Origin: an uncultured Nitrososphaeraceae archaeon
Lineage (GTDB): Archaea; Thermoproteota; Nitrososphaeria; Nitrososphaerales; Nitrososphaeraceae
Direction: 5' to 3'
Assembly (NCBI GenBank): GCA_963825865.1
Contig: CAWGVG010000060.1
Coordinates: forward strand, 96,001-160,000
DNA: 64,000 nt
In this document: positions 56,012 through 62,611 of the stretch, in pieces
How the letters are laid out: every line of letters begins with the position of its first letter
Position numbering within the stretch: position 1 is the stretch's first letter
The notes under the pieces: generated by a model
Seen by the model: only the letters and a program-made list of their open reading frames with translations
What the model was told of the DNA's origin: nothing
Databases searched by the model: none
Translations under genes and position numbers: made by a program

Positions 56012-56731
56012 TTAGCCAATACCTGGTCGAAATCTAGATGGCTCTTTTTCCTTTTGAATATCTTCTAGAATTGCTTCGTATTGTTTATCAAGAGGTTTTG
56101 TATCAAGCTTAATATTTTCAATTTTTGCAAATGCTTTCACAATACTTTTAGCCGCCAACGGCTGAGGACTTGTCGCTTCTGAAATTTCACCAAACAATCC
56201 TATTGCATTAATATTTCTATCGGCTGCCAAACCCAAAATTAATCCATTGAACCATGTTATGCTATTAACCTCAGTTCCAACAAGCGCGATGTCCGATTTT
56301 TTAAATACCTCTTTTAATTCTGAGTTATTCACTACTCCGCAAACCCTTGGTGCACCTGTTAATTGTTCATGGAGATAACCACCTGCTCCGTACAAGAGAT
56401 TGACTTTACCTGTGGCTTGTACATAATCCAGGAAGGTATTGCATAAGTTATAAAGCTCCATAGGCTCCTGGGGTTGGGAGTTTCCAGTAAAGATTAACAA
56501 TTTGTTCAATTTGTTATAATATATATTGTAGATATCTAGCGCAGTCTTAACTATACCATCCGAATATAATACCCATGGTTTCTCACTGGATATTATCTCA
56601 GCTACACATTCTGTTTCCAAATTTTCTGCCAAAAACGTTGAGACAAGTCCTCCTACTCTCCCCATATCGGGAAGTGAGGCAAAAACTTTGAATTCATCTA
56701 CTTTTAGATCTTTTATAATATTTAATCTCAT
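56012..56731 (-). CDS. PAC2 (proteasome assembly chaperone) family protein
   Basis: ASLPDMGRVGGLV, IFTGNSQP, GAGG, ITWFNGLILG, GLFGE..PQPLAAK. Confidence 0.88.
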   Translation of the reverse strand: MRLNIIKDLKVDEFKVFASLPDMGRVGGLVSTFLAENLETECVAEIISSEKPWVLYSDGIVKTALDIYNIYYNKLNKLLIFTGNSQPQEPMELYNLCNTFLDYVQATGKVNLLYGAGGYLHEQLTGAPRVCGVVNNSELKEVFKKSDIALVGTEVNSITWFNGLILGLAADRNINAIGLFGEISEATSPQPLAAKSIVKAFAKIENIKLDTKPLDKQYEAILEDIQKEKEPSRFRPGIG

Positions 56732-57616
56732 TTCATATTGTCCATCCCGTTTATCCTTTCAAGAAACGCGGATACTGCCGTATAATCTTGTTGAGAAAAT
56801 CCACTGTTATTTGCTGCCCTATAGATTTGCTGAACTATTGTCGCAGCTGGCAAGAAGATCCCTATAGACTGTGCAGAGGTTGTAACAAGTTCAAGGTCCT
56901 TGAGCATATTTTTAAGATGAAATGATGGCTCGAAATTATTCTTCACCATCTTTGGTCCCTTGGTTTCACTTAGTCCTGTCTTGAAATACGTAGAATTTAA
57001 GATTTGAATAAAAATCTGCGGATCTATTCCAGACGCTTTGACTAGTGTGATTCCTTCTGATATAGCGCTTGCTATCAGAGCTATATTCAGATTTAATGCT
57101 AATTTAACAGCGTTAGCATTGCCGTCAACACTGCCCATATAATATACCGAACGGGCCATTTTTTCAATGATTGGTTTTACTTCTTCAAATACCTCCTTTT
57201 TACCTGCAATTATTGACACCAGTTCACCTTTTTCTGCTGTCTGCCGGACCCCCCATCATGGGCATTTCAAGCATTTCAATTTGGTTTTTCCTAAATAGGT
57301 CGGCACAACACTTTGATTCCTTAGGAGAAATCGTGCTTAAATTTCCTACTATCAGACACTTGCGATTGGATGTAATAATTCCCTCAGTTCCAAAAGATAC
57401 TTGTAGTATTGCTTCGAAGTCTGTAACACAGATTATGATAAAATCGCAAATCTGTGCAAGTTCTTTTGGACTGGTTGCTATCTTGGCATCGATCCTTTCA
57501 AAAGGTTTTGTTTTTGTTGTATCACGATTGTAAACACTAACAACGTGACCAGTATTAATTAATCTTGAAGCAATTTGAGAACCCATTAATCCAAGACCAA
57601 TTACACCGACCCTCAT
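56728..57616 (-). CDS. NAD(P)-dependent beta-hydroxyacid dehydrogenase (3-hydroxyisobutyrate/tartronate semialdehyde family), frameshift near 57240
   Basis: GVIGLGLMG, YNR, STISP, PMMGG, VKLALN, F.LKNMLKDL. Confidence 0.92.
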
Positions 57617-57997: not shown

Positions 57998-58669
57998 TCA
58001 GGTTAATTCTTGAATTTGTAGCTTCTTGATATATTTTATTAATTGTATAGCATCTCGCTCTTTCAGGCTTTCTCTATTGTTGGTTATGTATGCTCGAAAG
58101 GATTCAATATGACTATCAGAACGCGGATATTTCTTCTTTGTTAGGTCCAGGATATCAGTATAATTTCTATATGGAAAATAGATGTTCTTTGCAACTTTTA
58201 TTATCACTCTTTTGGTATTCTCATCAATGATTCCTTTTCTTTTTGCAATAAATAAGTTAAACCTGATATCTATCATTGCTTCTGATTGAAGTATATGGTG
58301 ACCTTCTTCGAAAGTGACTGCTACTTCGTCATCTCCATCAATTTTACCTGTCTTGTAGAGCTGCGAATATTTTACCTATACCAATCATTCCAAATTTTTC
58401 AAGCTCCACCGCCCGCAATGCGCCAAGGCTTGCTGCACCTACAAGGACCATATTTTTTTTTGTTGCTATTTGATAGACCTCTATTGGTGTTGGTGGATAA
58501 TCCTGTAAAAAAAAGCCATCAACCAATCCAACAATCGTTACCTCATTTGTCAAACTTGCAAGCCGAAAAGGTCACCTTTTTTTGCTGGAGGCCTATAATC
58601 TGCTTCAAGAATACTCATTGCCTTTTCACGGCTAAGACTTGGGCCAAGAAAAATTATTGCTCTGTTCAT
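57998..58669 (-). CDS. tfuA: TfuA-like protein, split into three frames by 1-nt indels (~58567, ~58365)
   Basis: Rejoined MNRAIIFLGPSL..DYRPPAKKGDL / VGLVDGFF..GAASLGALRAVELEKFGMIGIGKIF / DDEVAVTF..SEAMIDIR..LKERDA; ATG overlaps the ycaO TGA (ATGA). Confidence 0.92.
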
Positions 58670-59988
58670 CGTTTAAAATACTTCCTTGCTCGATGTCCCA
58701 TAATTGATTTTGTGAATTTGAAAGTTTCTAGCCCGGGAACTATAGCGCGTACCACTGGAATGCCAATATAATCATTTGTCAGGGTAACGATTATCGCTGT
58801 TCTTAAACCAGCCTGTTCTAAACGATTTAAAATCAGCTTAATGTCATCAAGAATATCTTCATTAATGTATGTTTTAATTTCAGAGAATCTAATTGTACGT
58901 TTGGATGGCATGAACTGCCACGCGCGTTTATCGTCAGTATTATTTTCCCCATATCTAATTTTTCTCAGATCATCCCTTGCACCCTGAATGTTAGCGGCTC
59001 TTGTTTGTGAAACCTCAGTTATAGCGCGTAATAATGCTATACGTGCATCTGGATGGGTTCCATGTCCTTCTGCAAGATACCCATAGTTATTGGTTATCCA
59101 TTCAATACTGCTTGCATTAAATGTTGGAATACCTATATCTGATGTGACATCCTTTATTATCAGAGGGATTCTAGCTTTTGTAAATTTTTTGACCATATTT
59201 TTTAGTGGCTGAAATTCAATGTCTGAAATGTCAACGTCAGGAAATATTCCTGCGTCATCCATGAATTTATCCGCTGGAATTGCTGATAGAGGATAACCTT
59301 GCGTCTTCAGTGAGTTCATTATACATCGTAAAAAGTGAAATGGGATAGCGCTAGCACGTAATTCGGCTAGACTTATTGCATCTCGCTCTATGACTTCACA
59401 TAATGAATGACATATTGCCTCTTCCTCTACATTGCCAGATGCAAGTCCATTTGTATGGTGGAATGCAAATGGATTAATAACAGGAGATTTGGGACAGTAT
59501 CTAAATAATGCAAGCGGCGCAGGGACCATAATTTGCTCACCTGACAATAAGTCAACTCCAGGAAGGAATTCCATTAGCATATTATTTTTGTATTCAAACC
59601 TAACGGGTTCTACAACCTCATTAGGATGCAAGACTTTCGATGTCTTTGATAGTTCGTCGTAACTTCCTACGATAAAATTCCTAGGAGCTCCACTGGGTAG
59701 AGAAGTATATCTCTCGATGCTCTCCATTAAGGCACTAGCCTTTGCATGTTCCCTTGTTTGACCTTTTCCGTTATACACCCAAATGTAATCTTCTGTTCCC
59801 GGTAAAACTGCCGAATAATTTGGTATACGTAATATATCCATATGCGTAATATCAGCAAGTCTGGTCACCCCTATATTTTTGGATAATGTTGTAATTTTAT
59901 TGAGTGTCTCTTGGGGAGAATTTATTCTTGTAGTTCCCTTTTTCGTCCACTTTTTTCTGCTTTTAAGAAATAGTGGCTGAGCACTCAT
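58666..59988 (-). CDS. ycaO: YcaO-family ATP-dependent peptide backbone-activating enzyme (TfuA-associated, thioamide-forming type)
   Basis: GVTRLADIT..D.L.IP, NGKG..AKASALMESIER, TNGLASGN..EEAICHSLCEVIERDA, RAITEVSQTR, IPVVRAIVPGLE. Confidence 0.95.
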   Translation of the reverse strand: MSAQPLFLKSRKKWTKKGTTRINSPQETLNKITTLSKNIGVTRLADITHMDILRIPNYSAVLPGTEDYIWVYNGKGQTREHAKASALMESIERYTSLPSGAPRNFIVGSYDELSKTSKVLHPNEVVEPVRFEYKNNMLMEFLPGVDLLSGEQIMVPAPLALFRYCPKSPVINPFAFHHTNGLASGNVEEEAICHSLCEVIERDAISLAELRASAIPFHFLRCIMNSLKTQGYPLSAIPADKFMDDAGIFPDVDISDIEFQPLKNMVKKFTKARIPLIIKDVTSDIGIPTFNASSIEWITNNYGYLAEGHGTHPDARIALLRAITEVSQTRAANIQGARDDLRKIRYGENNTDDKRAWQFMPSKRTIRFSEIKTYINEDILDDIKLILNRLEQAGLRTAIIVTLTNDYIGIPVVRAIVPGLETFKFTKSIMGHRARKYFKR

Positions 59989-60036
59989 GATTATGAGCCC
60001 TTGTATTAGACCATATCAAGTTTACGAATCAGACAT

Positions 60037-60050
60037 AGAAATATATATTA
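60037..60050 (+). promoter_or_regulatory. Putative BRE/TATA box for the 60075 peptide gene
   Basis: AGAA-ATATATATTA ending about 25 nt upstream of the TTG start, consistent with archaeal leaderless spacing. Confidence 0.45.
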
Positions 60051-60074
60051 GATTTTGCATTTGTCTCTTATTAG

Positions 60075-60251
60075 TTGAACCCGCGACAGAAGGACGCTGA
60101 GATCATTAGCGAAATTCTTTTGAGAGCCACTAGTGAACCCGAATTCAGAAACCTATTGATTAAGGACCCTACAAAATTCTTAGAGCAATACAGTATTTCA
60201 CGAGAGGCCAAATTGATTATAAAAACCAGTATAGTTGATCTTACCCAATAG
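60075..60251 (+). CDS. 58-aa NHLP-leader-like peptide (absent from ORF track), divergent from ycaO
   Basis: MNPRQKDAEIISEILLRATSEPEFRNLLIKDPTKFLEQYSISREAKLIIKTSIVDLTQ matches the NHLP-clan pattern I..RA..(D/E)PEFR..L..DP...L..Y. Confidence 0.75.
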   Translation: MNPRQKDAEIISEILLRATSEPEFRNLLIKDPTKFLEQYSISREAKLIIKTSIVDLTQ

Positions 60252-60394
60252 CGCATATATGTCCGTATTTTTATGTGTTTTCATAAATTGCATCGCATAG
60301 GCTAAAACCTATAGTCAAATAAAATGCATGTATTTTTTTGTTTTCAGTGCTTGGTATGAAAACATTAAAATTTATTCTCGAACTTTTTTAGCTA

Positions 60395-61243
60395 ATGAAA
60401 AAATCTGTGGCGGTTGCATTGGTATTATTTCTTGGAGTTTTCCTGACAGTCATAATAGTTAGTCTGCGTATACTTGCACAGATAAACACAGCAGCCAATG
60501 CTATTAGTTACAATGTGATGACAGCAGAAAGGTTAGACACGTTTTCTGCCATGGGTACAATATCTTCTTTGATTTTTGACTCAGGAACATCATTACCATC
60601 AGCAACCACTAACGGAAATCAATCACATACATCTGGCAATCAAACCAAAGATATTATATCTCCAGGTACAAACACAGTAACAACTGAAGAAAAAGGGGAA
60701 GCACCATATGCTTTATCTGGTGACTGGAACTTGAAAGTGGAGAGAGGAAAGGTAAAGGATTTTACGGCAAAATTCACTATGGTACGTGTTGATGGAAGTC
60801 AACGCCATATACATGAACTAATTAACTTTAAAACCGGCAATTACAGCGACATTCAATTGGATCCGACAAATATCACTTTTATCAAGGGAACCTCCAGTGT
60901 TAGAACAAATGGTATTGAAACTTGGAGAGGGGTAGACACATTTCTATTGATTAACAAATTGAAGGTACTAAGCATAATTCCAAGCTCACAGGAAGTAAAT
61001 GATCACTTCAAAGGACAGCCAATTTATGGCATAACAGAATCAATGAAAGACAAAACCGGCAATGATATCATCGTATCATCCAATAGCATGACTCCTAGTA
61101 TCAATGGAACTATATCCAATTTTGTAGCTAATGGGACAGAAGAAGGAAAATCATTCTCTAACAAACCAGGAAAAACAGCGAATGCAACTATAAACAATTC
61201 CTCATTAGAAAGCTTGTACAGGAAATTTTTTGGCTCTTCTTGA
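60395..61243 (+). CDS. Secreted/membrane-anchored hypothetical protein; paralogue of 25992-26664
   Basis: N-terminal TM; LSGDWNL, DGSQRHIHELINF, HFKGQPIYG. Confidence 0.8.
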   Translation: MKKSVAVALVLFLGVFLTVIIVSLRILAQINTAANAISYNVMTAERLDTFSAMGTISSLIFDSGTSLPSATTNGNQSHTSGNQTKDIISPGTNTVTTEEKGEAPYALSGDWNLKVERGKVKDFTAKFTMVRVDGSQRHIHELINFKTGNYSDIQLDPTNITFIKGTSSVRTNGIETWRGVDTFLLINKLKVLSIIPSSQEVNDHFKGQPIYGITESMKDKTGNDIIVSSNSMTPSINGTISNFVANGTEEGKSFSNKPGKTANATINNSSLESLYRKFFGSS

Positions 61244-61573: not shown

Positions 61574-62611
61574 TCATTGCGTTCTTTTTGGCTCTTCCTT
61601 AGACATCATTTTTATCTCTTCCGGAGTTGGCTCTGTTTCCCTTTCGAATTTGCCGCTTACTAGTGCACTTGGCACATCTATCCATAATGAACTGCCATCA
61701 TAATTGTTTATGTATGACTTAGGAATGTAATAGTGATGAATTTTTACATCTCCTTCTCTAACTGCAATAAATTCATTTCCTACTGTTTCAACATCTCCTA
61801 TGTCTATATTGTCAGTTGTTCTGACATGCTTATGAATTACCTCTTCCCATGGGATATTGAGTGTCTTTCCCGATGATTCTGATTCAATGGCAACACCTGA
61901 CTCTTTGGCCATAAACGGTACCCCATATCTGAATTGTGGATATGCAGATTCTGTTTTTCTCATTTGTTCTTCGTATTGCTGCGTCTTGAATTCGGATTCA
62001 GAAGGAGGGCTATCTCGTTGATATTTGTCTTTGATTTCATCTTTCGTCAAGGATGCAAATAAGTCTTTACCGTCGAATCCTTGAATGTAGTATTTGGGTA
62101 TATAATAGTGCTTTTTACTTACGGTCCCTTCCTTGACTTCTATGTAATCAGTCGAAACGCTTTCAACCTCCCCTATCTCTTGGCTATCACTTGATTTTAC
62201 CTTCTTGTCGAGAATTTTTTCCCAAGGCAACCCAACCATGTCTTGGGAAGTAGTGGTCTGTCCTGATTTTGATCCAGTATGTGCAGGAATATTATTTGCA
62301 AAATCAGGGAAGTCTTTTGTCATTGTTGTCCTTCTCTCTGTATACTCTGGTGTCTCAAATTCTGAAGGGTCAGGTGCTTTTTCTTTCTCATATCTTGATT
62401 TTACTTCGTCTTTTGTCAATGAAATCCAAAGGTTGTCACCATCATATCCTTGGATATAATATTTGGGGATGTAATAGTAATTCTTTGATACTAATCCTTC
62501 TTTGGTCTGTATAAAGTCTTTAGTTATACTTTGGACCTTCCCTAAATCTTGGCTATCACTTGATTTTACCTTCTTGTCGATCGCCTTATCCCACGATATA
62601 ATATCGGCCAT
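61574..62611 (-). CDS. Protein of three tandem PRC-barrel/DUF2171-like domains
   Basis: Three repeats of W....K.V...D..D.G.V..V....I...EG.V....YYIPK.YI..YDG..LW. Confidence 0.82.
   Translation of the reverse strand: MADIISWDKAIDKKVKSSDSQDLGKVQSITKDFIQTKEGLVSKNYYYIPKYYIQGYDGDNLWISLTKDEVKSRYEKEKAPDPSEFETPEYTERRTTMTKDFPDFANNIPAHTGSKSGQTTTSQDMVGLPWEKILDKKVKSSDSQEIGEVESVSTDYIEVKEGTVSKKHYYIPKYYIQGFDGKDLFASLTKDEIKDKYQRDSPPSESEFKTQQYEEQMRKTESAYPQFRYGVPFMAKESGVAIESESSGKTLNIPWEEVIHKHVRTTDNIDIGDVETVGNEFIAVREGDVKIHHYYIPKSYINNYDGSSLWIDVPSALVSGKFERETEPTPEEIKMMSKEEPKRTQ

Follow-up and report, generated by a model that had tools for sequence, protein, structure and literature searches.

In a 64,000-nucleotide stretch of the genome of an uncultured Nitrososphaeraceae archaeon (assembly GCA_963825865.1, contig CAWGVG010000060.1, positions 96,001 to 160,000; this whole stretch is referred to below as the window), a gene with a TTG start at 60075..60251 (plus strand, stop codon included) encodes a 58-aa protein related to the nitrile-hydratase-like leader peptide (NHLP) clan. 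This small protein appears to be a dedicated partner of the enzyme pair YcaO-TfuA, which replaces an oxygen atom of a peptide backbone by sulfur, in terrestrial ammonia-oxidising archaea (AOA), that is, in the Nitrososphaeraceae and two further families, and most likely a substrate of thioamidation, a reading to which we assign a probability of about one half. The gene is found in the list of open reading frames (ORFs) and in 36 of 36 genomes of the family, with a ratio of nonsynonymous to synonymous substitution rates (dN/dS) of about 0.11; its distribution matches that of ycaO, next to which it usually lies, and its product is predicted to dock on YcaO. Thioamidation of the small protein, the site of this modification and the role of the product are what we infer from these observations. 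The sequencing runs that contain the window stretch are soil and rhizosphere metagenomes.

The small gene and its protein family

The ORF carries the motif EILLRATSEPEFRNLLIKDPTKFLEQY and the tail TSIVDLTQ and contains neither Gly nor Cys, exactly as an original prediction, made from the DNA letters of the window alone, had described it. That prediction also called the gene hidden, but public gene callers already list it as a 58-aa 'hypothetical protein'; it is present in public annotation, only without a name. A six-frame search of 61 genomes (60 relatives and the window's own genome) returned small-gene homologues with 52-79% identity in every one of the 36 genomes that share the window's family (the unpublished G034 among them), and weaker yet clear matches in two other families of the order (f4 and f9, each in 2/2 genomes); all other matches had E>=0.15. 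The position of the TTG start is common to most orthologues. Codon statistics were obtained, with Nei-Gojobori counts, from 25 ungapped 174-nt orthologues out of the 36 extracted: in the sense frame, the mean proportions of synonymous and nonsynonymous differences (pS and pN) were 0.79 and 0.21, respectively, and column entropy was 36, 23, and 78 at codon positions 1, 2, and 3. The dN/dS comparison that the original prediction had suggested gave a median of 0.11 over 93 unsaturated pairs. An antisense ORF of 61 aa (60071..60256, minus strand) overlaps the gene; among the same 25 orthologues, stops interrupt the three antisense frames in 25, 15, and 25 cases. Judged by this comparison, the ORF at 60075..60251 is a real, strongly conserved gene.

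The original prediction depended on the existence of homologues, and these are numerous. An alignment of 34 small-protein orthologues (A1), which was used as the family profile, matched 869 proteins at E<=1e-3 in a collection of 5.8 billion proteins; among the 120 matches listed, every source-given name was 'hypothetical protein', and the records belonged to Nitrososphaeraceae, Nitrososphaera or Candidatus Nitrosopolaris. Truncation of the small ORF by an assembly indel, of the kind met in tfuA (see below), can be ruled out, as 115 of 120 homologue clusters stop at the same residue, and contigs from other runs show no indel within the ORF. One adapter-flanked contig from an RNA library (X16) spans 60092-60229 without mismatch and is a weak sign of transcription of the small gene, given that carry-over of DNA is possible; RNA-library contigs are equally patchy over ycaO, tfuA, and the downstream gene, and the X15 contigs miss the small ORF. 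Second, unlinked copies of the small gene, which are of a paralogous type with 'REPEFRNQLIKQPSNVLEQYNISDEAK' and keep the C-terminal DLTQ, lie at G015:C279:121-294, G023:C220:73-246, and G028:C277:325-498; a search for a second copy in the window's own genome found none.

The proposed similarity to the NHLP clan was upheld in part: it is evident at the level of profiles but stays below every curated cut-off. Taken alone, the window protein matches the NCBIfam model NF038399 (the Os1348 family) with 19.3 bits (E 8.6e-4; cut-off 40) and TIGR03793 (NHLP leader) with 17.3 bits (E 3.2e-3; profile positions 3-37 of 77; cut-off 50.9), as well as PF14407 at 6.8e-3 and nitrile hydratase alpha at 0.07-0.09, all below the cut-offs. 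Among the 34 orthologues, NF038399 is the best-scoring family model, matched by 31 at E<=0.1 (best E 4.9e-6); TIGR03793 is matched by 30 at the same threshold (best 4.4e-5, none reported above cut-off), and in Pfam, PF14407 is matched by 25 and NHase_alpha by 15. Only NHLP-clan models, and no DNA-binding family, were matched in the Pfam and NCBIfam scans of the small protein. When the A1 profile was compared with the Protein Data Bank (PDB), the alpha subunit of nitrile hydratase (1v29_A) was found at 8.5e-8, together with 27 further rows for this subunit, the NHLP precursor 9cjx_A at 2.8e-3, and the proteusin precursor 8tb1 at 0.12. Against 1.84 billion representatives, the same profile matched 169 proteins at E<=1e-3 and 32 at E<=1e-10; 50 distant matches were picked from ranks 20-86 of the list, most short close relatives being passed over, and 49 of these 50 carry NHLP-clan domains, many of them above curated cut-offs. 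Homology of the small protein to the NHLP/nitrile-hydratase-alpha clan is thus well supported by profile comparison, whereas its membership of any curated NHLP-clan family is not supported. The consensus of the 34 orthologues contains no Gly, and the protein ends 16 residues past the region matched by TIGR03793, within a predicted helix. A role as a sulfur carrier (ThiS-like) can be ruled out, since there is no C-terminal Gly-Gly and no Cys.

AlphaFold2, supplied with A1, returned a compact four-helix model (mean pLDDT 89.6) with helices at residues 3-20, 22-30, 32-36, and 43-57. The residues TSIVDLTQ, which the original prediction had taken for a free short tail, are predicted in this model as the end of helix 4. 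Fold searches with the model were unspecific: Foldseek gave no row at E<=0.001 against the PDB, and the rows of a wide VIA-align run, many of them unrelated helical proteins, did not exceed Z 5.9. Os1348 (6lk7) was aligned by Foldseek at E 7.7 with a TM score of 0.55 over 44 columns, which is in the score range of chance for helical proteins, and by VIA at Z 5.0 with a root-mean-square deviation of 2.6 over 54 aligned residues, where unrelated helical rows reach Z 5.9; the proteusin precursor 8tb1, row 5 of the Foldseek result, is a weak row with 33% identity over 42 columns. Therefore, the family assignment rests on sequence profiles.

The C-terminus deserves separate consideration. The length after the EPxFR motif is identical in 115 of the best 120 homologue clusters, and S52, I53, D55, L56, T57, and Q58 show little or no variation across those 115 clusters (Q58 in 115/115). 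Such near-invariance of S-I-x-D-L-T-Q is unusual for a mere helix end, and the constant helix end, together with the fixed stop, suggests that the C-terminus has a specific job.

Association with ycaO and the predicted complex

The small gene starts 86 nt from the start of the divergent gene ycaO (58666..59988, minus strand), which encodes a TfuA-associated (thioamide-type) YcaO of 440 aa. The protein matches the Pfam family YcaO (PF02624) at 1.3e-71 with 242 bits, above the cut-off of 25.7, and its closest NCBIfam model is TIGR03266 (McrA-glycine thioamidation YcaO; 3.3e-83), where its 279.7 bits are below the cut-off of 365. In a phmmer alignment to 6pe3_A, the YcaO of Methanocaldococcus jannaschii, query residues 18-212 correspond to 8-187 and query residues 261-436 to 202-378; the segment 213-260 in between, encoded at 59209..59352 (minus strand), holds approx. 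34 residues that are absent from the M. jannaschii protein. An alignment of 30 YcaOs (A2; 448 columns for 440 residues) indicates this insertion in all 30. The same genome also contains, outside the window, a decayed second ycaO (G000:C36:36496-37852) with 55-66% identity and 7 stops inside the match.

The two genes occur together. The small gene (E<1e-3) and YcaO (E<=1e-20) are present in the identical 41 of the 61 genomes, G034 again included. In an even, class-wide sample of 201 genomes, 22 contain YcaO (PF02624), and these 22 also contain the small protein; one extra, marginal match of the small protein (E 8.8e-4) is located inside a 1001-aa frame, and one family with 114 genomes in this sample has neither YcaO nor the small protein. 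Linkage with ycaO, on which the original prediction had also relied, was recovered as well: both genes are present in 34 of 39 relatives' loci, and in 48 of 80 species loci ycaO lies next to the small gene in divergent orientation, at approximate gaps of 70 to 852 nt (median 84). It should be noted that the 80 species loci overlap the 39 loci of the relatives and that 5 of the 80 are interrupted by a contig end. In family f9 (L036 2815-3783, genome G044), a gene for a membrane protein of the sodium/bile-acid symporter family (SBF) sits between ycaO and the small gene.

Binding of the small protein to YcaO, for which the original prediction had proposed a complex model, is supported by prediction. 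One complex prediction job with three controls, in which A2 (30 rows) was combined with A1 (34 rows), gave ipSAE values of 0.74, 0.68, and 0.75 for YcaO and the small protein in three runs, compared with 0.00 for all three controls; in calibration, 116 of 157 solved complexes and 2 of 215 mismatched pairs reach the mark, a standard that is only rough here because own alignments were used. The runs share at least 96% of contacts, with a partner pLDDT of at least 87. YcaO residues 216-247 and 438-440 are predicted to contact residues 4-29 and 44-58 of the small protein, which is thus predicted to dock on the YcaO insertion at approx. 213-260. Co-variation between the two proteins (mutual information with average product correction, 57 distinct pairs from 71 loci) gave no signal, and the depth of these data leaves the test with little power; 8 of the 50 top-ranking pairs have their YcaO residue in 213-260 or 436-440, compared with 8.6 expected, which speaks neither for nor against binding.

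Putative promoters, tfuA, and neighbouring genes

A TATA box approx. 25 nt upstream of the small gene had been proposed in the original prediction, and a TATA-like block is indeed located at 60036..60051 (plus strand), 25-35 nt before the TTG. This A/T-rich block, which also resembles a transcription factor B recognition element (BRE), is conserved in relatives; in the upstream alignment, 'cattaggattatata' is kept upstream of small-gene orthologues with or without an adjacent ycaO and would represent their promoter, implying a short or absent 5' leader. Another conserved intergenic element, 'catatcaagtttacgaa' (60012..60028, strand unassigned), was recognised by eye in the upstream alignment and is seen only where ycaO is the divergent neighbour, in most linked loci, and is absent in the unlinked loci L012, L020, and L027; it is probably the ycaO promoter or a shared operator. 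As 'cattaggattatata' is independent of ycaO and 'catatcaagtttacgaa' occurs in linked loci only, the alignment can therefore be read as indicating separate, back-to-back promoters for the small gene and ycaO.

The tfuA gene, which follows ycaO (57998..58669, minus strand), is distributed in the window over three frames (58550-58669, 58344-58553, and 57998-58276) by two 1-nt indels, and its pieces match TfuA with 59.7 bits (cut-off 30) and lower. In relatives, tfuA is one frame. Contigs from two DNA runs of different studies (X1 and X4) lack base 58363 and have an extra G after 58567; a contig from the RNA library X16 also has this extra G and does not cover 58363. With both indels corrected, the frame is open for 223 aa, with 67% identity over 221 aa to the TfuA of a relative, compared with just 39 aa in the uncorrected window. 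Because these contigs differ from the window and the corrected frame is open, the breaks most likely arose as errors of assembly or exist in this assembly alone. Nearby, at 56728-57616 (minus strand), a 3-hydroxyisobutyrate-dehydrogenase-like gene is similarly split, with NAD_binding_2 (57224-57616) and NAD_binding_11 (56728-57219) in different frames, which suggests more indel errors in the assembly. Completeness of the window's genome is estimated at 81.8%, and such errors may be the cause of this value.

On the other side of the small gene, a 282-aa protein is encoded at 60395..61243 (plus strand); it has an N-terminal hydrophobic segment, an N/T-rich region, and a conserved C-terminal domain, has no Pfam match, and is 36% identical to the protein encoded downstream of the small gene in genome G014. 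This neighbour accompanies the small gene only in the window and in some unlinked loci, i.e., in part of the family, and judging from this distribution, it probably lies outside the YcaO-TfuA system; as a true partner of the small gene it can be ruled out, since it is missing from most ycaO-linked loci. The unlinked small gene of G014 is otherwise surrounded by genes for an Na/H exchanger and an OGG-like glycosylase and by ORFs without family, among which nothing informative was found. Further along the window, a 345-aa protein (61574-62611, minus strand) has three internal repeats, seen by eye, and a DUF2171 match.

Proposed mechanism, alternative explanations, and significance

Under the substrate reading, transcription of the small gene would start from a strong TATA/BRE promoter of its own, back to back with ycaO, and the product would fold as an NHLP/nitrile-hydratase-alpha-like helical domain. 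This folded domain would dock on the lineage-specific insertion of YcaO (residues approx. 213-260) in the manner of the leader of a ribosomally synthesised and post-translationally modified peptide (RiPP). YcaO would then activate a backbone amide with ATP, and TfuA would help to deliver the sulfur, so that a thioamide is formed, probably within the almost invariant C-terminal S-I-x-D-L-T-Q. Since neither a protease nor an exporter nor a Gly-Gly site is present, the end product would be the whole modified mini-protein rather than a released peptide. The chemistry itself, i.e., thioamidation with ATP and TfuA, is established for methanogen YcaO-TfuA (PMC7581889, PMC8120280). It is conceivable that the thioamide has a metal-binding role in these copper-dependent nitrifiers.

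Comparison with known systems reveals both likenesses and differences. NHLP precursors (TIGR03793) share with the small protein an N-terminal helical region homologous to nitrile hydratase alpha and a gene position beside a YcaO-family maturase. In the work of Haft et al. from 2010, these precursors reportedly carry a leader cleavage site of the Gly-Gly type followed by a core peptide, whereas the small protein has no Gly-Gly site, no Cys, and no separate core, ends after the fourth helix, is archaeal, and is conserved over its whole sequence. Proteusin precursors with a structured NHLP leader (8tb1, 9cjx) are comparable in that folded leader domains are recognised by maturases; however, they have long core peptides and are handled by radical SAM epimerases and other enzymes, and the match covers only the first helices. 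We know of no small leader-like partner in the YcaO-TfuA system of methanogens. This system, which in methanogens and anaerobic methanotrophic archaea (ANME) forms thioglycine on McrA (TIGR03266/NF033432; PMC5589413, PMC7581889), contains the closest relatives of the window's enzyme pair, from which the window YcaO differs by a score of 279.7 bits under the cut-off of 365 and by approx. 34 extra residues. As stated in PMC5589413, it has been known since 2017 that AOA YcaOs fall in the same clade as McrA-type YcaOs, and AOA lack methyl-coenzyme M reductase (MCR).

Two bacterial cases are also close. According to PMC7726476, Os1348 of Pseudomonas sp. Os17 (NF038399, 6lk7) is a small, all-helical, folded, precursor-like protein without classical NHLP leader motifs. 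The small protein, as predicted, would be of the same general kind, although its structural match to Os1348 is weak; Os1348 has 85 aa, is dimeric and bacterial, and is clustered with a GNAT, an HEXXH peptidase, and a SagB-type dehydrogenase, not with YcaO-TfuA; its authors regard it as a modified precursor of the Pseudomonas gene cluster. Bacterial TfuA clusters with Nif11-like precursors, as described in PMC8120280, also place a precursor of the wider NHLP/Nif11 kind beside YcaO-TfuA; these precursors keep Gly-Gly, often with dedicated transporters, and the window locus has neither. In the same source, thaumarchaeal TfuA clusters number 8, and Figure S11 depicts a cluster from Nitrosocosmicus. 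The accessible text of PMC5589413 and PMC8120280 thus already reports the presence of YcaO-TfuA in these archaea and names no target for the AOA enzymes. No paper that names the small protein was found in a literature search, although subscription papers and supplements (including Figure S11 of PMC8120280) may hold it. Within this context, the novelty lies in the partner of a TfuA-type YcaO: an archaeal NHLP-clan protein, conserved throughout, that lacks both a cleavage site and a separate core. This protein is the best candidate yet for the target of archaeal YcaO-TfuA.

Several observations weigh against a substrate role or against the partnership as a whole. The AlphaFold2 model is folded throughout: helix 43-57 takes in the C-terminal residues, and a disordered core is missing. 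The window protein contains no Gly, Cys or Gly-Gly site, and no protease or exporter is encoded nearby. The listed YcaO contacts include no conserved acidic or Arg position of the ATP site; the model therefore represents docking, with no substrate placed in the active site. The deeper lineages (families f4 and f9 and genus g5) depart from the C-terminal motif and have other C-termini, some of them with Gly. Co-occurrence of the two genes reflects few independent gains or losses across three families, as relatives are not independent samples. Moreover, 27 of the 80 species loci have no ycaO within 1-3 kb upstream (22 of these 27 are labelled 'Nitrososphaera sp.'), and the complete genome G014 keeps both genes but approx. 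925 kb apart. The original prediction had offered two roles, a minimal precursor modified near its C-terminus or a leader or adaptor acting on YcaO in trans; the partnership with YcaO is supported, and of the two roles the first is the likelier. The original picture is qualified by scores below the curated cut-off of every NHLP family model, by a tail that is predicted to be helical, and by one lineage in which the gene lies away from ycaO.

A possible, though distinctly less probable, explanation is that the small protein works by itself as a leader-like adaptor or activator that binds YcaO in folded form, is not itself modified, and either switches YcaO-TfuA on or aims it at another protein, or bridges YcaO and TfuA. 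The fully folded prediction without a flexible core fits such a role, as does docking that is predicted on a peripheral insertion and whose listed contacts include no catalytic position. The entire sequence is conserved, unlike the variable core of most RiPP precursors, and only the leader portion of NHLP precursors (profile positions 3-37 of 77) resembles it. To our knowledge, however, there is no natural trans-acting, stand-alone RiPP leader, and this counts against it. The near-invariant C-terminal DLTQ with its fixed stop could mark a reaction site no less readily than a binding determinant, a few genomes (G015, G023) carry second copies, which one expects of precursors more than of subunits, and the neighbourhood contains no conserved candidate for a second substrate. 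On the other hand, the methanogen homologue of YcaO modifies a large protein, McrA, and not a peptide (PMC5589413, PMC7581889). Somewhat less probable again is that the small protein represents a RiPP leader occurring naturally on its own: a folded NHLP domain whose core has been lost and which, in trans and docked on the YcaO insertion, switches on thioamidation or aims it at a different cellular protein of AOA, in a housekeeping modification comparable to the thioglycine of MCR.

It is unlikely that the small helical protein is unrelated to YcaO-TfuA, its adjacency being inherited synteny and its distribution the common descent of the three families. Such an explanation would account for the conservation of the small gene in the 27 of 80 species loci that are unlinked from ycaO, for the part of the family that keeps the downstream 282-aa N/T-rich neighbour rather than ycaO, for the separate divergent promoters in place of one operon, and for a co-occurrence that rests on few independent gain or loss events. 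Nonetheless, the match of presence and absence is exact in both the 61 and the 201 genomes, bar one marginal match; proteins of the NHLP clan usually serve maturases, YcaO-type enzymes among them, as precursors; the predicted complex clears the mark while every control stays at 0.00, and docking is predicted precisely on the insertion specific to these YcaOs. Most ycaO-linked loci, in turn, lack the downstream gene. It is very improbable that the small protein acts as a regulator of transcription, or as an antitoxin-like factor, for the divergent ycaO-tfuA operon. Such a role would suit the divergent position typical of local regulators, the conserved intergenic element, and the small, all-helical protein, but this is an acidic to neutral helical member of the NHLP clan that matches only NHLP-clan models and no DNA-binding family in Pfam or NCBIfam, and its gene retains its promoter block even with ycaO approx. 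925 kb away.

The small protein is always found with the enzyme, usually beside it, and is predicted to dock on the insertion of YcaO, which makes the question of the target of archaeal YcaO-TfuA directly testable. If the small protein is the substrate, it would be a second natural protein target of archaeal thioamidation and an unusually minimal, fully conserved 'RiPP', probably used whole, in globally abundant soil nitrifiers. If it is instead an adaptor, it would represent a new use of a leader domain.

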